Source: an uncultured Bacilli bacterium
Lineage (GTDB): Bacteria; Bacillota_I; Bacilli_A; RF39; UBA660
DNA: 64,000 nt
Direction of reading: 5' to 3'
NCBI GenBank assembly: GCA_947626655.1
Contig: CANQTA010000001.1
Span: 22,750-86,749 of the forward strand
Position 1 is the first letter of the stretch. Every line of letters begins with the position of its first letter. The notes under the pieces were generated by a model that saw nothing but the letters and a program-made list of their open reading frames with translations, did not search any database and was not told the DNA's origin. Shown here piece by piece: positions 4,769-61,362 of the stretch. The position numbers were made by a program, and so were the translations under genes.

Positions 4769-6391
4769 ATGAATGATTATTCAGAAAATAATGAAGAAAA
4801 AATTAAGGAAGAAGAACATAAAGATGGAATGCGACATTTTTTGGTTTATGCAATTATTTTTGTAGCAATATTGATAATAGCTGCGATAACTGCTACCTTT
4901 GCTTATTTTACCGCTAATGTGGATATGACTAATAGTAGACCAACTAATATTGTTGGTACTACCGAATGCATTGATGTGCAATTTGAAGTTGAAAGTGATG
5001 CTGATGGTATTGAATTACCATTAAACTATCCGATTAGTGATGAATATGCCATGGAATATGGCCATGTAAAACCAGTTACTGTAAAAGTAATTAATAAATG
5101 TACTAATGAAAAACAAGAACCTATTGATTATACTTTGGCTATTACAACAGTTGGTAATAATCCTACTGAAACTGATAAGGGATCTATAACTGATAATAAA
5201 ATTAGATTTCTATTCGAAAAGGAAACAAAGAGTACTGGCGAACTAACTCAACCTGAAAATCCTGATTATTTGACCAGTTTAGATATTTTAGATTCAATGT
5301 CTACTAACTATACTTTAATTAAACAAAGTTTTTTAAATGAACATCGGATTAATTTAAGTGATTATAGTTGGTCAAATATATATAAGATAGATGCGGACAG
5401 TATTGCGACTAATTCAACTAATGTTTATAAAATCTATTTATGGATTGATTATTATGAAGGGGATGCTGATGCTTACACAAGTGGTACTCATACAAGCGAG
5501 GGGTATGATAATTCTACTAAGGGGCAAACATTTAAATCATTAATTAGCCTAGTAGTTAATAATAATGAAAATGCTACTGGTAATATAGATAATTATATTT
5601 GGACAAAGGCTATTACAGGTGGTGAACAAGTAATTGCTAAAAATCCTCAAGGTTTAGTTACTACCACAGATGAAAGTGATTTAGTACGAAGATTTGTGGG
5701 TACAGATGTTAATAATTATATTTGTATAAATAATGAAAAATGTGAAGAAAATGATGAATATATGTATCGAATTATTGGTTTGACTGAAGATGGCAAATTG
5801 AAATTAATCAAAGCAACTCCTTATAAAGAAAGTGCTTCTATTGCTTGGGATACTAGTTATACTACTGATAGACAATGGGGTGTAACTACATTAAATAGTG
5901 AATTAAATGCACCAAGCTTTTTAAGTAATCCTAGTTATATTCCAGAAATATTAAAATCAAAAATAATATTAAATAATTGGAAACAAGGTTTAGTTGTTAA
6001 TAACGAAGAAGAAGGGGCAGAAGAAATAACGGCAAGTGAAATAATTACAGGAGAAAATAGTGCCGTTGATACTATATCTCGTCATATTGGACTTATGTAT
6101 TTAAGCGATTATGCCTTAGCTACTTCTAGTAATGAAACTAGTTGTGTTAGTACTACTTGTGATAATTGGTTAAAAGATACAACAAATACATTATGGACAA
6201 TGACTCGTTATGGTAAAGAAAAAACTAATAATCGTTATAGTGCTTGGACAATAAAAACTGATGGAACTGTTACTCATACAAATGTTGATCAAACCAATGT
6301 AGTTTATCCAGTTTTCTATCTACAATCTAATGTAACTATAAGAGGTGGCGATGGTTCTATAACTGATCCAATGATTGTTATATTCCAATAA
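4769..6391 (+). CDS. surface/secreted protein, intact member of a paralogous family (540 aa); N-terminal signal anchor, Thr/Asn/Ser-rich
   Basis: RBS aagggtga. A cytoplasmic N-tail is followed by the TM helix FLVYAIIFVAILIIAAITATFAYF. The C-terminal half is clearly homologous to the 60086.. and 40841.. products (shared blocks YICI..C..NDEYMYRIIG, LKLIKAT, HIGLMYLSDY, CDNWLKD, VYPVFYL..GGDGS..P). Confidence 0.7.
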   Translation: MNDYSENNEEKIKEEEHKDGMRHFLVYAIIFVAILIIAAITATFAYFTANVDMTNSRPTNIVGTTECIDVQFEVESDADGIELPLNYPISDEYAMEYGHVKPVTVKVINKCTNEKQEPIDYTLAITTVGNNPTETDKGSITDNKIRFLFEKETKSTGELTQPENPDYLTSLDILDSMSTNYTLIKQSFLNEHRINLSDYSWSNIYKIDADSIATNSTNVYKIYLWIDYYEGDADAYTSGTHTSEGYDNSTKGQTFKSLISLVVNNNENATGNIDNYIWTKAITGGEQVIAKNPQGLVTTTDESDLVRRFVGTDVNNYICINNEKCEENDEYMYRIIGLTEDGKLKLIKATPYKESASIAWDTSYTTDRQWGVTTLNSELNAPSFLSNPSYIPEILKSKIILNNWKQGLVVNNEEEGAEEITASEIITGENSAVDTISRHIGLMYLSDYALATSSNETSCVSTTCDNWLKDTTNTLWTMTRYGKEKTNNRYSAWTIKTDGTVTHTNVDQTNVVYPVFYLQSNVTIRGGDGSITDPMIVIFQ

Positions 6392-13994: not shown

Positions 13995-14188
13995 ATCTTG
14001 TAAATTAAATTTTTATATGTTTCCCTAACGGACCACAACATTAAAAATTTTGTCTGACGATTTTTGCTTTAAATTATAATAATTTATGATTAAATAAAGT
14101 CTTGAAGCGCGAGGTTAACGCCACCTACCCAAATTCAGTGGGGTTTTGGTTGAAATACTAAAAACTTAATGAAGGGGTGATGGTAAAA

Positions 14189-14395
14189 TGAGTGCTAAGA
14201 CAATGAATTTTGTATTATCATTTATTATTTTGTTATTAATATTTCTTATATTTATACTAATAATAAAAGACGTTCACGGTCAACCATGATTACTTGTATA
14301 ATGCGTATGCGGTACGCCCAGTCTTCTATCTTCAATCTACAGCAACAATAACGGGAGGAGAAGGGAAATTAGGAAATCCATATATCATAAATTAG
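14189..14395 (+). pseudogene. decayed remnant of the surface-protein family: N-terminal signal anchor joined out of frame to a C-terminal ~45-aa module
   Basis: RBS gaaggggtgatgg then an ATG giving MSAKTMNFVLSFIILLLIFLIFILIIKDVHGQP*. One nucleotide out of frame, the read continues as KTFTVNHDYLYNAYAVRPVFYLQSTATITGGEGKLGNPYIIN*. This matches the family C-terminus VYPVFYLQSNVTIRGGDGSITDPMIV. The segment is richer in GC than its surroundings. Confidence 0.55.
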
Positions 14396-19306: not shown

Positions 19307-19678
19307 TTATTTACTTTTTTTGTTAACTCCAACCATTCCACCCAAAATACTAGCAATAACTAAAATAATATAATAAATAAAAGTAGAAATATGAATTCCG
19401 TTATTAAAAAGAGCAACTTTAATCAAAATCATAAGAACAATAAAAATAAGCCCTAAAGTTAAACCTTCAATTAACCCTTTTTTATGCATTTTAAAAGCAT
19501 TAATATAACTAAGAGTAAAGAATAAAGCCAAATTAATTATCAATAGAATAATAGTCGTTATACCACTATTTAAACCGAGTAAATTTAAAAGAGAAGTTAT
19601 AAAAGTTACTAAAAGTTCAATAATTAGAAAAACTCCCACATACTTAAAATAATATATTAATTTATTCAAAAAAATCAC
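19307..19678 (-). CDS. hypothetical polytopic membrane protein (123 aa)
   Basis: Four predicted TM segments. No recognisable domain. Confidence 0.4.
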   Translation of the reverse strand: MIFLNKLIYYFKYVGVFLIIELLVTFITSLLNLLGLNSGITTIILLIINLALFFTLSYINAFKMHKKGLIEGLTLGLIFIVLMILIKVALFNNGIHISTFIYYIILVIASILGGMVGVNKKSK

Positions 19679-19743
19679 CTAGTAAATTATAATATTGTGT
19701 TTAAAAAATTATGAATATAACCATAATATATTTAGGTGATTAT

Positions 19744-23793: not shown

Positions 23794-24675
23794 TTAATTA
23801 TAATGAGGATGGTTTTTATAATCATCTTTTATTTTTTCGTTAGAAATATGGGAATATATTTCCGTAGTTGATAAATTTTCATGGCCTAATAATTCTTGAA
23901 TAATTCTTAAATTAGCCCCATTATTTAATAAATGAGTGGCAAAAGAGTGTCTTATAATGTGTGGCGATATTTCTTTGTTGATATGACTTTCTTCACAGCG
24001 TTTAACTAAAATTTTAAAAAAACCTTGTCTAGTCATTTTTTGCCCATTGTAATTTAAAAATAAATAATCGGTATCATTTTTAACTAGAAAATTGCGATAT
24101 TCATTAATATATAAATCTAAATATTTAATAGCAATCGCTGAGATTGGAATAATTCTTTCTTTACTTCCCTTCCCCATTACTTTAATAATTTCATCCTCTT
24201 TATTATAACTAGCTAATCTAAGATTTAATAATTCAGATATTCGCATCCCAGTAGCATACAATAATTCAAGCATTGCTTTATTACGATATTCTAAAGGTTT
24301 TTTAGGATCAAAATCTAATAACTTAATTATTTCATCTTCTGTTAAAAATTTTGGTAGGCGTTTACCAATCTTTGGCATTTTTATATTTAAACAAGGATTT
24401 ATCTCAATTCTTTTTTTATCGACTAAAAAGTCATAAAACGATTTCAAAACGGTTAAATAATGTGCTTTGGTTTTACTACTATCTTGAAAACTATATAAGT
24501 AAGTTTGAATTTCATCTTCAGTCAAATCAGCAATATTTTGATCTGGAAAATATTTACATACTTCTATTAAATTATAGCGATAAGAAAGGTATGTATTATT
24601 AGCTAATTTTCGTTCATATTTTAAATAATCGAGATAATCGACAATTTCTTGACATAATGTTATTTCATTTTTCAT
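23794..24675 (-). CDS. tyrosine recombinase XerC/XerD family
   Basis: HIIRHSFATHLLNNGANLRIIQELLGHENLSTTEIYSHI catalytic box with an N-terminal SAM-like domain, 293 aa. It is chromosomal (between zupT and rarA) and not flanked by mobile-element genes. Confidence 0.8.
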   Translation of the reverse strand: MKNEITLCQEIVDYLDYLKYERKLANNTYLSYRYNLIEVCKYFPDQNIADLTEDEIQTYLYSFQDSSKTKAHYLTVLKSFYDFLVDKKRIEINPCLNIKMPKIGKRLPKFLTEDEIIKLLDFDPKKPLEYRNKAMLELLYATGMRISELLNLRLASYNKEDEIIKVMGKGSKERIIPISAIAIKYLDLYINEYRNFLVKNDTDYLFLNYNGQKMTRQGFFKILVKRCEESHINKEISPHIIRHSFATHLLNNGANLRIIQELLGHENLSTTEIYSHISNEKIKDDYKNHPHYN

Positions 24676-40733: not shown

Positions 40734-40840
40734 TATTTAAATTTTAAAAAACAGACTTAATTTCCGAATATGAATTTTAATATTCATTTTGTTGAAAACC
40801 CCATTTTCGGAGCTTGCCTCGCACAAACCGCGAGACAAGC

Positions 40841-42196
40841 TTAACTGCTTTGCAAATTTATTCTCCATGGACTTTCTTTACTTCCATCTCCACTTTTGAT
40901 TGTCGCTTCTGATTTGAGTACAAGGACCGGACGCACGCCATAGCTGTAGTAGTTCACGCTGACGCAGCTCACATAACCACTACTGCCGACAGTCAACGCA
41001 TAGTACGTAGCGTCGGCTTGGCGAGAAAGCGTCCATTCATTTACTCCATTATACAACCAATTCTCACTTCGATTTTCTTTTGTATTATAATAAAATAATT
41101 GAGTACTCCAATTACTTGGGGCTGATGCATAACCATACTCTGTAACATACATCAATCCTACTTTACTTGTTTGATATAATAAGGCATCTGTACATTGTAC
41201 ATAACTTTGTGAGTTATCTGTACATTGGCTTGATGAACTTGTTAATTTATTTGCTCCTAATTCATTATCATATGCTGCTTTCATACTACTTTGTCTTGTT
41301 ATATTATTATACGTATTTCCTCCAATATACCACTTTGTATTTTCTATTAAACTCGTATATGAGCTTAAACTTGTTAAATAATTTCCACTTTCATTGTTTA
41401 ATGTCTTATTCAATGTACTTGATATCCAGTTATTCCATGTAATAGAACTATTTCCACTCCAATAAAAACCTACTGCATTTGTTACATCTGCTCTTGGAGT
41501 ATAATCTGTTGCTGTTGTATATTGTGATAATATTTTTGATGTTAATCCTCCTCCTAATTCAGCTTCTGTTATATACTCACTTTTTATTATCTTCATTTCA
41601 TATTTTGTTGGCTCTCCTTCTTTTGGAAACCATCCTATTACTCGATATAATTTAGTTGTATCACATACTCCATCACCATTATTATTACCATCTAAACATA
41701 CATAATTATTTGGATTATTGCCTGCAAATCGATAACTATTATCTCCAGCTTCATTAGCACCATATGTTCCTTTTCCATCATGATATACTAAATATCCATC
41801 ACCAGTTGATAATTTAGTAGTATCATCTACATATTCTGGTAATACTTTTGATACTTTTAAATCAAAATACAAATAACAATAAGCTGTTATTCCTGTATCT
41901 ACAGTTGCTATATGATTTTCTTCATCATATGTTAAGATTTCTTCTTCTATTTTATTACCATCACCATCTATACATCCTGACATTGTTTTATTAAATGTAT
42001 ATCCTTCTTCTGGCCAAGTATTTCTTTCATCGGCTACATAGGTACTTGTTCCATCTTCTTGTTTTTGCTCTAAATACATAGCAAACATATTCTTATCTAC
42101 TATATTATTTAATTTTACATCATATAACTTATTATCTTTTTTAGCAAAAGACATATAGTTTATAATTATAATTGTTAATACCACTGGTATTAACAA
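40841..42196 (-). CDS. surface-protein family paralog 2 (451 aa from an internal TTG); native ATG at 42264 is out of frame because of a 41-bp tandem duplication, putative phase-OFF allele
   Basis: Homologous blocks with 4769.. and 60086.. (YVCLDG..C.TTKLYRVIG, GLMYVTEYGYA, YGVRPVLVLKSEATIKSGDGSKESPW). The track ORF starts at a TTG with no SD. An SD-preceded ATG at 42262-42264 reads MKFNKRYLLLLIPVVLTIKDIFYC* and then terminates. Confidence 0.6.
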   Translation of the reverse strand: MLIPVVLTIIIINYMSFAKKDNKLYDVKLNNIVDKNMFAMYLEQKQEDGTSTYVADERNTWPEEGYTFNKTMSGCIDGDGNKIEEEILTYDEENHIATVDTGITAYCYLYFDLKVSKVLPEYVDDTTKLSTGDGYLVYHDGKGTYGANEAGDNSYRFAGNNPNNYVCLDGNNNGDGVCDTTKLYRVIGWFPKEGEPTKYEMKIIKSEYITEAELGGGLTSKILSQYTTATDYTPRADVTNAVGFYWSGNSSITWNNWISSTLNKTLNNESGNYLTSLSSYTSLIENTKWYIGGNTYNNITRQSSMKAAYDNELGANKLTSSSSQCTDNSQSYVQCTDALLYQTSKVGLMYVTEYGYASAPSNWSTQLFYYNTKENRSENWLYNGVNEWTLSRQADATYYALTVGSSGYVSCVSVNYYSYGVRPVLVLKSEATIKSGDGSKESPWRINLQSS

Positions 42197-42256
42197 TAAA
42201 AGATATCTTTTATTGTTAATACCACTGGTATTAACAATAAAAGATATCTTTTATTG
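42171..42256. repeat. perfect 41-bp tandem duplication (2 copies + 4 bp) containing palindrome TTGTTAATACCACTGGTATTAACAA
   Basis: Unit attgttaataccactggtattaacaataaaagatatctttt occurs at 42171-42211 and again at 42212-42252. 41 is not divisible by 3. The unit encodes the LLLLIPVVLTI signal-anchor segment. Confidence 0.9.
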
Positions 42257-42344
42257 AATTTCATAAACTCTTCTCCTTTTTATTTTTCTATTTCAACTAA
42301 ATTATAATACATTATTATTCTAAAAATCAATAGATTTTAAGCAA

Positions 42345-42932
42345 TTAGTCAACAATATAGTAAACTTGGGGATATTTTAACTTTTCTCTTAAACCATAAG
42401 AAAATATTTCTTTATCTTTAAAAGTATTGATAATATTTTCGTTTAATAGACTATTTAAAATACAAATAAAATCTAAGTTATTGATATCTTTAGTAGTGTT
42501 TAATATATAATTTAAAATACCTATTTTATAAGTTCTATTAGGGACGGAAACTTTTTTGATTAAATTGTTAGAAAAGCTCATTACATAAAGATTTTTAGAA
42601 GAATATTTATTCAATAAATTAATTAACTTATTAAAACTAGTGATGTTTTTTAATTCAATTAAAAAGATTTTAGAACTTTTAATTTTTAAAATACTTTTTA
42701 GAGTAGGAACATATTTAGGCAATTCATAAAGACAAGTAGAACTTATTAATTTACCATTAAATAAATTATTATGAAAAATAACAAATTCATTATCTAAAGT
42801 TTCTCTGACATCAAATTCGACGCCAACATATTTAGAGTCATTAAAAGCATTGAAGATAGCTTCATAAGTATTCTCTTTAATACTTTCGGTATGTAAACCT
42901 CGATGTTTTATTAATTTATACAAAAAAATCAC
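42345..42932 (-). CDS. glycerophosphodiester phosphodiesterase family protein (short, 195 aa)
   Basis: IKHRGLHTES..ENTYEAI......VEFDVRETLDNEFVIFHNN matches the GDPD catalytic HR..E.D..DG..V..HD pattern. Confidence 0.5.
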   Translation of the reverse strand: MIFLYKLIKHRGLHTESIKENTYEAIFNAFNDSKYVGVEFDVRETLDNEFVIFHNNLFNGKLISSTCLYELPKYVPTLKSILKIKSSKIFLIELKNITSFNKLINLLNKYSSKNLYVMSFSNNLIKKVSVPNRTYKIGILNYILNTTKDINNLDFICILNSLLNENIINTFKDKEIFSYGLREKLKYPQVYYIVD

Positions 42933-42965
42933 CTAGTAAAATATACTATGTGACTTAATATTTTA

Positions 42966-43367
42966 TTATTTACTTTTTTGCTTTTTAAACATTAAAGTAA
43001 AAATAATTATGATTAGAAAAAATAAACTAATAGATAAAATTTGAACTTTGTAAAGAGCTAATTCTTCAGGTTTATTTAATTCTAAGCTTTCTTTATAATT
43101 ATTAATACCACTTACTACTTCAGCATTTTTGGTAACATAAAAAGTATAAATGGTTTCTTCTAAATCTTTATTAGTAACTTTTAAATAAACTATATTATCT
43201 TTAGCTAATAATTCATTATCTATTATTTCTAGAGTAGCATCGCTATCTAATTTATAAGTAAATTCTAAAGAATTAATAGTACTATCGACAGTAACGGTAT
43301 AAATATAATTATATTTATCAAATTTTAATTCTAAATTGCCATTTAAGATTTTTAAATCACTGAGCAT
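42966..43367 (-). CDS. small TM-anchored protein with a single cadherin-like beta-sandwich domain (133 aa)
   Basis: LSDLKILNGNLELKFDKYNYIYTVTVDSTINSLEFTYKLDSDATLEII...YTFYVTK follows the same repeat pattern as the 31944.. protein. C-terminal TM LSISLFFLIIIIFTLMF + KKQKSK. Confidence 0.5.
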   Translation of the reverse strand: MLSDLKILNGNLELKFDKYNYIYTVTVDSTINSLEFTYKLDSDATLEIIDNELLAKDNIVYLKVTNKDLEETIYTFYVTKNAEVVSGINNYKESLELNKPEELALYKVQILSISLFFLIIIIFTLMFKKQKSK

Positions 43368-60085: not shown

Positions 60086-61162
60086 CTATAATGCTATTTT
60101 AAATGGATTACTTGTTGTTCCTTCTCCAGACACCTTTATATCGGCTGAAAGATAGAAGACTGGATAAGCTGCATTAGAATTATTTGTATCCCAGTGATCA
60201 AGACTGCCAGATGAAATTATTAACCATGCACCATATCCGTCATCACCACGAAACCGTGTTATTGTCCATTGATTATTAGATGAATCTTTTAACCAGTTAT
60301 TACATGATGATGTAGATTGACAATTTGTTGTTCCTGCATTATTTTCGGCATAATAATAATCACTTAAATACATTAAACCTATTTGCGTACTTGTATTATC
60401 TTGTGTAGTATTTTCTGCATCATATACTTCTTGCCCGGTATTTGTTTCGGTTGATACTGAACCTTGGTTCCAGCTCATATTTATTATCTTTGTTTTTAAT
60501 GTTTGAGGAATATATGATGCATTATTTAAAAATGATTCACTATTTAATTCTGTTCCTAAATCACCTTGACTCCATTGATAATCTAAGTAATAACTTGAAT
60601 TCCACATTGTTGATGTATTATAAGCAGTTGCCTTAATTAATTTTAAATTTCCTTCACTTGTTGTACCAATTATTCTATACAGATAATTTTCATTACATGT
60701 TCCTTCTCCTACATTGGGATCTATACATATATAATTATCTACTTCTGTTCCAACATAACGATATTGTAAACTTCCTGTATTTGTTTCTTGTAAGCCTTTT
60801 GATTTCTTATTGGCAACATAATTTCCACCTAATAATGTTTTTTCATCGAAATATAAATAGCAATATACCGTTTGACTACTTGTTACTGTTACTTTATTAT
60901 TATCATTTGATAATATTCCCTCTATTTTTTTGCCATTACTATCCATACAACCACTTTCATCTAAGTTTAATGTATATAGATTACTATCTGGAAACATGTC
61001 ACTTCCTGTGTATGGTTCATATTTATCTTCTTTTTTTACATACATAGCAAATGTATTATCTTTTCTTACTTGATTTTTAATCTTTACTTCATCTACTGCC
61101 ATTTTATTATTGCTCTTATCTGGTATAAGTATTATTATTGTTGATACTAATAGTATCAACAA
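60086..61162 (-). CDS. surface-protein family paralog 3 (358 aa from an internal TTG); native ATG at 61230 is out of frame because of a 41-bp tandem duplication, putative phase-OFF allele
   Basis: Strong homology to 4769.. (YICIDP..C.ENYLYRIIG, NLKLIKATAY, QIGLMYLSDY, CNNWLKDS, AYPVFYL..GEGTTSNPFKI). An SD-preceded ATG at 61228-61230 reads MKKQLKYFSLLILLVSTN* and then terminates. Confidence 0.6.
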   Translation of the reverse strand: MLILLVSTIIILIPDKSNNKMAVDEVKIKNQVRKDNTFAMYVKKEDKYEPYTGSDMFPDSNLYTLNLDESGCMDSNGKKIEGILSNDNNKVTVTSSQTVYCYLYFDEKTLLGGNYVANKKSKGLQETNTGSLQYRYVGTEVDNYICIDPNVGEGTCNENYLYRIIGTTSEGNLKLIKATAYNTSTMWNSSYYLDYQWSQGDLGTELNSESFLNNASYIPQTLKTKIINMSWNQGSVSTETNTGQEVYDAENTTQDNTSTQIGLMYLSDYYYAENNAGTTNCQSTSSCNNWLKDSSNNQWTITRFRGDDGYGAWLIISSGSLDHWDTNNSNAAYPVFYLSADIKVSGEGTTSNPFKIAL

Positions 61163-61220
61163 ACTAAAATATTTTAGTTTGTTGATACTAATAGTATCAA
61201 CAAACTAAAATATTTTAGTT
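61138..61220. repeat. perfect 41-bp tandem duplication (2 copies + 1 bp) containing palindrome TTGATACTAATAGTATCAA
   Basis: Unit ttgttgatactaatagtatcaacaaactaaaatattttag occurs at 61138-61178 and again at 61179-61219. It encodes the LLILLVSTI signal-anchor segment. The unit length (41 bp) matches the 42171 locus. Confidence 0.9.
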
Positions 61221-61362
61221 GTTTTTTCATTATTAACCTCTTTCTTTATTCTCATTATATACTGCATATCTTGTTTAAATTATATCTATTATTTTTTAAT
61301 AAGTCAATTTGTTTGTTATATGTTTTTATTCACTTTACAACAAAAAACTGCTCATCACAGTT

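Follow-up and report, generated by a model that had tools for sequence, protein, structure and literature searches.

Two genes for predicted surface proteins in an uncultured Bacilli bacterium from the gut carry, immediately downstream of their start codons, an exact 41-nt tandem duplication that breaks the reading frame. We consider it probable (roughly 60%) that these duplications are one state of an off-switch that works by structure-directed duplication and deletion and acts on a contingency family of surface proteins. The two genes, referred to here as A and B, were found in a single 64-kb stretch of DNA, the whole of which was analysed and is called the window below.

At locus A, the first-pass annotation had described an exact 41-bp tandem repeat at 42171-42211 and 42212-42252, and this was confirmed. 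The two 41-mers are identical and lie on the minus strand (in gene orientation, units 42252-42212 and 42211-42171), and the repeat continues for a further 4 nt (CAAT, shared), giving a feature of 42171-42256. Tandem Repeats Finder (TRF) reported the same interval with a period of 41, 2.1 copies and 100% matches, and no such 41-mer repeat is expected by chance (100 shuffles). The ATG at 42264, with its Shine-Dalgarno (SD) core AGGAG at 42277-42273, yields only a 24-aa peptide, MKFNKRYLLLLIPVVLTIKDIFYC followed by a stop (42190-42264, minus strand), as had been stated. In-silico deletion of one unit restored the frame, also as stated, and gave a 460-aa product (MKFNKRYLLLLIPVVLTIIIINYMSFAKK...) predicted to be a signal-anchored protein. 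The remaining ORF begins, again in agreement with the earlier description, at a TTG (42196) that lacks an SD; this body (40841-42196, minus strand, 451 codons) contains no stops. The duplication thus splits the sole SD-preceded ATG from the gene body, and the positively charged n-region is split off with it. Upstream lies a promoter-like TTGATT-18-TATAAT (42301-42330, minus strand, 10/12 matches), a block whose conservation extends to the single-copy paralog in L001, where it likewise lies upstream.

Only this duplication had been noted before; a second, independent and equally exact 41-nt duplication at 61138-61220 had been missed. It lies in gene B, a paralog 19 kb from A (60086-61230, minus strand), at the same codon position and with a unit whose sequence differs from that of A (61219-61179 and 61178-61138, as read in the orientation of the gene). 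Both duplications begin 11-12 nt past the ATG, and the A and B units differ at 13 positions. The SD-preceded ATG of gene B (SD GAAAGAGG, 61244-61237) opens an ORF of only 18 codons (61174-61230), while the body (60086-61162, 358 codons from TTG 61162) is free of stops; removal of one unit gave a 367-aa paralog 29% identical to A. A promoter-like TTGACT-17-TATAAT with 11/12 matches is present at 61279-61307 on the same strand. Of the 43 TRF rows, only those at loci A and B combined a period of more than 11 nt with 100% identity. The window contains a third paralog on the plus strand (4769-6391, 540 aa). Its C-terminal 264 aa share 43% identity with B; the N-terminus is different and has no palindromes and no duplication, and the gene serves as an internal control. 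Pfam and NCBIfam assigned none of A, B and C to a family, and no match came from a sequence-profile search of the PDB.

Each 41-nt unit is composed of two abutting palindromes. A palindrome with 11-bp arms had been recognized previously; the palindrome is indeed present, but its arms are 13 nt long and enclose a single centre base. At locus A this palindrome, P2, reads ATTGTTAATACCA-G-TGGTATTAACAAT and occupies 42171-42197 in the second unit, where its 1-nt centre is the first base of codon 14, and 42212-42238 in the first (palindromes are given without strand). The remainder of the unit forms another perfect palindrome, P1 (AAAAGAT/ATCTTTT, the slash marking the centre), which is extendable to 22 nt. 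In the first unit P1 spans 42235-42256 (CAATAAAAGAT/ATCTTTTATTG, 11-nt arms, 14-nt core) with its centre in codon 7 (TAT), and its second copy lies at 42198-42211. A perfect 63-nt palindrome with 31-nt arms (42194-42256) exists in the two-copy state only. Each unit of locus B similarly consists of P1 (ACTAAAAT/ATTTTAGT) and P2 (TTGTTGATACTA-T-TAGTATCAACAA). Seven of the nine palindromes in the window with arms of at least 10 nt sit at loci A and B, and Markov shuffles produced 0-4 such palindromes per window.

P1 and P2 are centred on identical nucleotide positions in A, B and L001. When these three alleles were compared, 7 compensatory pairs and 0 uncompensated changes were found; all other differences were confined to the unpaired centre base, which in P2 is G, A and T across the three. 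This covariation could stem from template switching rather than from selection. Distant family members have ordinary MKKK-type anchors with neither palindromes nor duplications, which indicates that the palindromes are not dictated by the protein. Across 66 related loci, no exact tandem duplication with a period of 15-120 was found, and L001 was the only one with a palindrome (arms of at least 8 nt) within the signal-anchor codons. A few palindromes in these loci lie upstream of the start, and one AT-rich 8-nt pair is located just past the start of L016. In the sister species of P0212, the RNase Y locus lacks the gene, and the neighbour has no palindromes. Genes with this type of N-terminus number only about five so far, and every one of them comes from a single narrow, uncultured lineage. 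The P2 motif TTGTTRATACYANTRGTATYAACAA matches the window and was absent from GTDB species representatives, JGI metagenomes and IMG/VR, collections in which this lineage is absent.

In the two-copy allele, a +2 shift puts the body out of frame with the sole SD-preceded ATG, from which only 24 codons (A) and 18 codons (B) remain open; the structure is an exact intragenic tandem duplication (41 nt x 2) that breaks the reading frame. The two-copy gene is thereby predicted to lose the positively charged n-region required for the signal anchor. As a single strand, this allele forms a hairpin of 27 bp with a T-run behind it, resembling an intrinsic terminator; its folding energy is -32/-33 kcal/mol for DNA and -46.7 for RNA (z about -12), compared with about -10 in the one-copy state. 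A consensus scan gave 6 terminator-like matches per locus versus 0 in shuffles; the stem is AT-rich (3-4 GC pairs) and the U-run is interrupted. Located just inside the transcript, this hairpin with its U-run would be terminator-like and a plausible RNase III substrate. Taken together, the frameshift, the lost n-region and the terminator-like hairpin suggest that the gene is OFF at several levels. Both genes are otherwise intact, with near-consensus promoters and SDs, bodies without stops and 100% identical units.

The geometry of the units suggests how the two states might interconvert. Codons 4-17 of the signal anchor correspond to the abutting P1 (14-16 nt) and P2 (12-13-nt arms, one centre base). 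During replication, a nascent strand in which P2 has been copied could fold back on itself at P2, copy P1 from the nascent strand itself, re-anneal at the template P1 and resume synthesis; one such cycle would add exactly P1 + P2, that is, 41 nt. A string model of these steps (P2 fold-back, P1 copying and P1 re-alignment) reproduced the observed two-copy sequence exactly at both loci. In the opposite direction, one unit could be lost by slipped mispairing or single-strand annealing between the 41-nt direct repeats, which would bring back the ON allele. Palindromes stimulate deletion, and the long perfect palindrome of the two-copy state should promote this unit loss. Each paralog would switch independently; in the present strain, A and B would be OFF and the P0003 paralog ON.

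The earlier suggestion that the structure is prone to duplication gained support from a paralog in which a 41-nt duplication has struck identical codons, from the seven compensatory changes and from the exact fit of the fold-back model, which point to an event directed by structure and not to a random one. The arms can pair within a strand, and the product is explicable by two modelled polymerase jumps, as at other template-switch hotspots. Template switching at inverted repeats homogenizes arms and inverts spacers (PMC8604942), and perfect hairpins can be maintained by it (PMC8794818). We infer the template-switch path, its reversibility and any selective role. More tentatively, the loci may represent a new class of contingency switch, in which two conserved palindromes, abutting within the codons of the signal anchor, program a precise and reversible 41-nt duplication/deletion through strand switching templated by a hairpin. 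The duplicated state would frameshift the gene and also build a terminator or RNase III hairpin, the paralogs of a partly DGR-diversified family would be toggled independently, and this arrangement would have replaced the poly-G tracts of sister lineages.

These tracts were observed when the family was compared with sister genomes, as the first-pass annotation had recommended. In sister lineages, 28 of 45 family genes have a G7-G10 tract at the start, and the same family is visibly phase-variable through these poly-G tracts, which identifies it as a contingency family. In one example, a G9 tract lies in the promoter spacer; in other sister-lineage genes the tract is intragenic, at codons 7-10, where, among the paralogs of one MAG, genes with G9 are in frame and those with G10 are out of it. 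Runs of seven or more G or C are absent from the 64-kb window.

The copy state of each locus was constant. The strain was recovered with 100.000% identity over more than 30 kb in at least three samples, with A and B in the two-copy form and the P0003 paralog in one copy and intact. A unit-unit junction of the two-copy form reads, for example, GTGGTATTAACAATAAAAGATATC, and the junction that a second copy would create at the P0003 locus would read AACAATAACAGATATC. All SPAdes assemblies of this clonal strain agreed on the copy state of each locus, and no one-copy allele of A or B was present among 5.8 billion clustered proteins. Of the reversible ON/OFF switch that had been proposed, the OFF state and the hotspot are borne out; reversal was not seen, each locus having one state in every assembly.

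Such constancy across every assembly and sample, as well as the lack of one-copy alleles among the clustered proteins, would also be expected if the duplications reflected parallel, effectively fixed pseudogenization at a mutational hotspot. The 41-nt duplication would then be a frequent error, owed to the double palindrome, that is not used as a switch, and two (perhaps three or four) paralogs would have been inactivated, possibly through selection to shed surface proteins. Template switching alone, which can make and keep perfect palindromes without selection (PMC8794818, PMC8604942), is compatible with this explanation. We nevertheless regard it as unlikely, because the units are still 100% identical and the bodies, promoters and SDs intact, and because instability is expected of two tandem 41-nt repeats within a perfect palindrome of 59-63 nt. 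Moreover, relatives switch the same family by poly-G at the same N-terminal site, which provides a standing reason for on/off control.

An appreciably less probable explanation is that the two-copy allele is not OFF, with expression maintained by -1 frameshifting or by re-initiation at the TTG and tuned, not abolished, by the hairpin as an attenuator of transcription or translation. A -1 shift would restore the frame (41 mod 3 = 2), in the second unit of A an A_AAA_G precedes the 13-bp P2 stem by 9 nt, the stop at A shares bases with TTG 42196 (TTGTTAA), and the hairpin with its U-run resembles an attenuator. However, the A_AAA_G is a weak site present at A only; nothing similar is seen at B, where 17 nt separate the stop from the TTG that follows, and the pattern expected of programmed -1 frameshifting or bypass was not found. 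The frameshift product would contain two tandem hydrophobic segments, and the TTG product, which has no SD ahead of it, would lack the n-region present in the listed family members with complete N-termini. Membrane topology is governed by the positive-inside rule, under which both products are expected to have inverted or abolished topology.

A dimeric nuclease or recombinase that binds or cuts at P1/P2, making staggered cuts 41 nt apart that are duplicated by fill-in, seems more doubtful still. Perfect dyad symmetry is typical of dimer-bound sites, and here it is conserved with covariation. The genes near the two loci, though, are GDPD-like, cadherin-like, HemN-like, TruB and holA, with no recombinase or nuclease adjoining either locus, and the sole integrase-family gene in the window (23794-24675) is of the XerC/D type and 18 kb away. 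A centre of 1 or 0 nt is unfit for a tyrosine-recombinase core, and the template-switch model needs no added factor. A target-site-duplication footprint was also considered and set aside.

An assembly or library artefact at the palindrome is the least probable explanation: palindromes do disturb de Bruijn graphs, and Logan and SPAdes contigs differ at B, but two-copy-specific k-mers were present at every k of at least 15 and are therefore not composable from one-copy reads, three SPAdes-type assemblies agree on the two-copy form, the independent Logan contigs at A stop exactly at the k=31 branch node made only by the junction k-mers, and the intact one-copy paralog with the same palindromes was assembled as one copy in three samples, the same samples and at similar coverage. 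The two-copy form was also seen in ENA SPAdes contigs, three of which carry the truncated B product. Logan contigs L071/L072, candidates for proof of a one-copy B allele, were rejected for this purpose, as a one-copy allele possesses no 31-mers that a two-copy genome lacks, and tip clipping at a palindromic self-loop collapses a pure two-copy genome to an identical contig. At A, the Logan contig ends at unit+26 rather than +27, a 1-nt detail that weakly opposes the tip-clipping account.

The first-pass annotation had called gene A a surface-protein gene, and it is predicted from its sequence to be signal-anchored with a C-type-lectin/FGE-like variable C-terminal domain. A hypervariable block at its 3' end (40941-41030, minus strand) is GC-rich (~52%) and A-poor, like the variable region (VR) of a diversity-generating retroelement (DGR), and it lies in a C-terminal region on a CLec/FGE-like fold. 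Directly after the stop is a GC-rich hairpin (40812-40840, minus strand; 13 bp, -23 kcal/mol as RNA), which is identical in the L001 paralog and occupies the position where DGR targets carry a hairpin. Gene A looks like a DGR target, comparable to Treponema TvpA, Bordetella phage Mtd and Thermus TaqVP. DGR systems comprise a template repeat, which differs from its VR at adenines, and a reverse transcriptase, whereas no segment of the 64-kb window was at least 50% identical to the VR (ungapped, 161 nt, both strands) and no reverse transcriptase motif was found in it (regex, six frames). Both elements may lie elsewhere in the genome, which would make gene A a remote target. As paralog B has the duplication without a variable region, the switch is independent of the DGR.

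The closest precedent is found in pneumococcus. Its capsule phase variation is driven by reversible ORF duplications (Waite 2001, 2003, cited in PMC4243769, refs 29-30). In cap3A, cap8E and tts, spontaneous tandem duplications within the ORF are likewise exact and inactivating; there, the gene is restored by precise loss, and no dedicated recombinase is involved. Reversal is known there, whereas in our case it is a prediction. The pneumococcal duplications studied by Waite reportedly vary in length and position. Here, by contrast, a conserved double palindrome determines a unit of constant length, 41 nt, which recurs at the same codons in paralogs and creates a terminator-like hairpin.

In Haemophilus, Neisseria, Campylobacter and Mycoplasma, simple-sequence contingency loci have a homopolymer tract either in the spacer of the promoter or in the 5' part of the coding region. 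They share with the present loci the on/off frameshift near the N-terminus and the multigene family of surface proteins. The loci described here differ in having no 1-9-nt tract, a 41-nt unit in one or two copies, and hairpin-templated switching as the proposed process in place of homopolymer slippage; simple-sequence repeats of this kind were found in the sister-lineage genes of the family. Neither do A and B resemble invertible-DNA switches, as the promoter lies intact outside the repeats and no recombinase gene is adjacent. Quasipalindrome template switching (Ripley 1982 model; PMC8604942, PMC8794818) shares the intrastrand fold-back and the two polymerase jumps, and would also account for the arm homogenization (compensatory pairs) and for spacer inversion (the complementary P2 centres predicted for P0004). 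Its known outcomes are point-mutation clusters and spacer inversions, and the literature searched contained no description of the precise tandem duplication of two abutting palindromes as a gene switch. A preprint on Xanthomonas phase variation was set aside as a parallel, as it concerns IS elements and a G-hexamer rather than duplications.

Searches for phase variation usually look for homopolymer or short-repeat tracts and for invertible promoters, and a switch based on palindrome geometry would escape them; contingency genes may thus be under-counted in low-GC gut bacteria. If correct, the proposed switch would be a natural case in which template switching, usually a source of mutation clusters, makes a precise and reversible structural change. 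The family would also offer a natural comparison between poly-G switching, as in sister lineages, and the palindromic 41-nt unit of the present strain, and in gene A an on/off switch would be combined with a ligand-binding tip that is hypervariable in the manner of a DGR target, giving two layers of surface variation. For MAG annotation, it matters that k-mer assemblers can silently collapse such a duplication, as does the shortening of gene calls. Gene callers shortened both genes in the window, to 437 aa (A) and 338 aa (B).

Gene A lies on the minus strand (40841-42264) and reads AAGGAGAAGAGTTT-ATG-AAATTCAAT, followed by AAAAGATATCTTTTATTGTTAATACCAGTGGTATTAACAAT twice and then TATAATTATAAAC. 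The 41-mers at 42212-42252 and 42171-42211 are identical, where none would be expected by chance, and TRF reported 42171-42256 with a period of 41 and 100% matches. Translation from the SD-preceded ATG at 42264 stopped after 24 codons, out of frame with the body, the long reading frame 3' of the duplication. This frame (40841-42196, 451 aa) has as its sole possible start a TTG within the second unit. When one unit was removed in silico, a 460-aa protein (MKFNKRYLLLLIPVVLTIIIINYMSF...) was restored. The first-pass annotation, which had described an exact tandem duplication at 42171-42252, a displaced ATG, a frame restored by loss of one copy, and a residual TTG start, was therefore correct about this locus.

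Screening with TRF and a repeat finder detected one further 100%-identical 41-nt tandem duplication in the window, at 61138-61220. It lies in gene B (minus strand, 60086-61230), a paralog with 29% protein identity to A. As at A, the duplication begins 11-12 nt past the SD-preceded ATG; it cuts the ORF to 18 codons, and removal of one unit yields a 367-aa protein (MKKQLKYFSLLILLVSTIIILIPDK...). Of the 41 positions, 13 differ between the A and B units, indicating that the two events were independent, with no copying between the loci. The third paralog (4769-6391) has an N-terminus unlike that of A or B and carries no repeat. P0003, a close paralog in the ENA assemblies (79% identical, 461 aa), is intact, and its DNA (L001) contains a single unit.

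Each 41-nt unit at A and B consists of two abutting palindromes, P1 and P2, both of which are also present in L001. P1 is AAAAGAT/ATCTTTT at A and ACTAAAAT/ATTTTAGT at B (slashes mark the centre), and P2 is ATTGTTAATACCA-G-TGGTATTAACAAT at A and TTGTTGATACTA-T-TAGTATCAACAA at B. In both genes, P1 is centred at the same nucleotides within codon 7, and P2 on the first base of codon 14. Because both parts of the unit are palindromes, two units together form a perfect palindrome of 59-63 nt. Seven of the nine window palindromes with arms of at least 10 nt fall at these two loci, and shuffled sequences yielded 0-4. Any unit difference among A, B, and L001 has a mirrored counterpart in the other arm, the sole exception being the single unpaired P2 centre (G, A, and T across the three alleles). 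A and B differ by four mirrored pairs in P1 and two in P2, and A and L001 by one, giving seven compensatory pairs and no uncompensated change despite differing encoded peptides. Judging from these substitutions, the symmetry of the unit is upheld at the nucleic-acid level, through selection or through recurrent homogenisation by template switching of the kind described for palindrome arms (PMC8604942, PMC8794818). More distant family members, among them the 64 loci taken from 'uncultured Bacilli' MAGs of rabbit and Hadza origin, begin with MKKK-type signal anchors of the ordinary sort and show neither N-terminal palindromes nor tandem duplications.

This architecture suggests a fold-back model. 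After copying P2, the nascent strand would fold its 3' arm onto the 5' arm and copy P1 from itself; since P1 is a palindrome, the copy would again be P1. The strand would then re-anneal to P1 on the template and resume synthesis. Implemented as string operations, the model produced the exact two-copy sequences at A and B (+41 nt), so that in the model the palindromes alone suffice. It also explains the equal length at both loci, although the flanking microhomology at B is only 1 nt. Slippage and single-strand annealing at direct repeats are stimulated by long palindromes, and a unit would be expected to be lost through either route between the 41-nt repeats. The N-terminus of P0004, a related protein of 641 aa, is MFVNTNSINKQKYFCLLILLVLT, matching what a two-copy allele of the B type would encode in its body frame when started at a TTG (cf. 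FVDTISINKLKYFSLLILLVST at B). Such an allele would imply complementary P2 centres (A then T), a signature of spacer inversion by template switching (PMC8604942).

As 41 mod 3 is 2, neither two nor three copies keep the reading frame. A TTG-initiated body would be without the positively charged n-region found in those listed members of the family whose N-termini are complete. Membrane orientation is governed by the positive-inside rule, by which such a protein would not be inserted with its body outside the cell. The two-copy single strand forms a predicted perfect 27-bp hairpin (-32 to -33 kcal/mol as DNA, -46.7 kcal/mol as RNA; z about -12), compared with about -10 kcal/mol for the one-copy fold. 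The hairpin is followed 3' by TTTTATTG at A and TTTTAGTTTG at B, and a terminator scan predicted six sites per locus versus 0 in shuffles. Promoter-like sequences (TTGATT-18-TATAAT at A, TTGACT-17-TATAAT at B), SDs, and bodies are intact at both.

The 41-nt duplication is not an assembly artefact: SPAdes contigs carry two copies at A (L067) and at B (L070), the truncated B product was called on three contigs, and at every k from 15 upward the two-copy allele has k-mers specific to it, so that no assembler could build this allele from one-copy reads. Independent contigs from ENA ERZ27248994 and Logan ERR10663711, ERR10663712, and ERR10663713 were 100.000% identical to the window over >30 kb and thus represent one clonal strain. 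Logan contigs at A stop at ...TTGTTAATACC, precisely the k=31 node that is branched only when junction k-mers exist. At B, the L071 and L072 contigs from Logan run ATG...one unit...TAATAATACTTATACC and appear ON-like. We did not count them as evidence for a one-copy (ON) allele, as such an allele has no 31-mers of its own and the junction is a 40-nt perfect palindrome that folds on itself in a canonical de Bruijn graph. Simulated tip clipping of the junction stub converted a pure two-copy genome into precisely the observed B contig, while A still broke at unit+26/27. Separately, Logan ends from at least two runs coincide 16 nt beyond the B unit (L071 2313-2328, L072 2304-2319; window ~61122). 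No version of the graph simulations predicted this break, which might reflect a nearby variant or hairpin-related coverage loss.

Among the 45 family genes of sister lineages whose upstream sequence was long enough, 28 have a G7-G10 tract at their start, with examples at L003 3900-3930 and L080 ~940-990 and in many of L003-L066. Such tracts number 47 in 410 kb of DNA of roughly 25-30% GC, mostly at starts of family genes, and six contigs start within 4 nt of one. In a rabbit MAG, a G9 occupies a promoter spacer (TTGACT-ccgggggggggtatta-TATAAT), and in a sister species a related gene with a variable-region (VR)-like C-terminus has a G8 in its promoter spacer. In a Hadza MAG, poly-G falls at codons 7-10, directly before the membrane helix, and paralogs of one genome carry an in-frame G9 (L030 4005-4025) and an out-of-frame G10 (L032 3975-4000). 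On sequence grounds, these tracts represent slipped-strand phase variation of the classic type among uncultured Bacilli of the gut, and they mark the family as a contingency family. No run of at least 7 G or C occurs in the window; its lineage lacks the poly-G and has the double palindrome at this N-terminal position instead.

We thus observed a real, recurrent, structure-directed inactivating duplication within a contingency gene family. The proposal of a phase switch at A holds to that extent; both copy states at one locus were not seen in the assemblies of the available samples, each locus showing a fixed consensus state (one copy in three samples at the P0003 locus). The main rival, fixed parallel pseudogenisation at a mutational hotspot, we consider unlikely. 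The poly-G context raises the prior for a switch, and we estimate a probability of roughly 0.6 that the duplication is reversible and used as one. In function the locus resembles SSR contingency loci, and in mechanism quasipalindrome template switching. Among known systems, it comes nearest to the phase variation of the pneumococcal capsule, which arises through spontaneous duplications within ORFs (Waite 2001, 2003, as cited in PMC4243769). The literature searched contained no account of a duplication whose length is fixed by abutting palindromes and which recurs among paralogs.

The AlphaFold model of the gene A protein (mean pLDDT 80.8) predicts a helix at the N-terminus, a body rich in beta structure, and a domain at the C-terminus. 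Its matches include TvpA (6.6), the Lcl C-terminal domain (5.8), Mtd (4.3), and TaqVP (3.3), together with FGE/EgtB-type domains and numerous C-type lectin domains. At the 3' end of the gene, 90 nt (about 40941-41030) are A-poor with about 52% GC, versus ~25% for the genome. Proteins P0001-P0004 are hypervariable here, but only at positions inside an invariant scaffold, and gene A differs from L001 in a block of doublets between identical flanks, which include a GC hairpin directly 3' of the stop. The 3' end (40812-41030, minus strand) thus resembles the VR of a diversity-generating retroelement (DGR) target on a CLec/FGE-like fold, followed by the conserved hairpin. Gene A would fit a DGR target; the window contains no template repeat or RT. 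Gene B has no VR-like block, indicating that the proposed duplication switch is independent of the DGR.

Several further observations concern the family and its surroundings. P0002 (438 aa) starts MSFDKK, truncated in the manner of two-copy gene A, and is chimera-like, with an N-terminal part identical to P0003 and a C-terminal part nearer A. In ERZ27248994, the body of gene A is divided between contigs L067 (end ~41902) and L076 (end ~41667). Together, the split and the chimera point to extended stretches of near identity and to recombination between paralogs. At 14188-14395 (plus strand), a signal-anchor-like 33-aa ORF (MSAKTMNFVLSFIILLLIFLIFILII...) is directly followed by a second 33-aa ORF matching the family's extreme C-terminus (...AVRPVFYLQSTATITGGEGKLGNPYIIN); the pair resembles a relic of a family gene whose entire middle is gone. 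Finally, the two copies of a 58-nt direct repeat, 81% identical, overlap gene starts: that of the GDPD-like gene adjoining locus A (42909-42966) and that of ORF 19307-19678 (19655-19712). The repeat could be a regulatory or 5' segment common to both.
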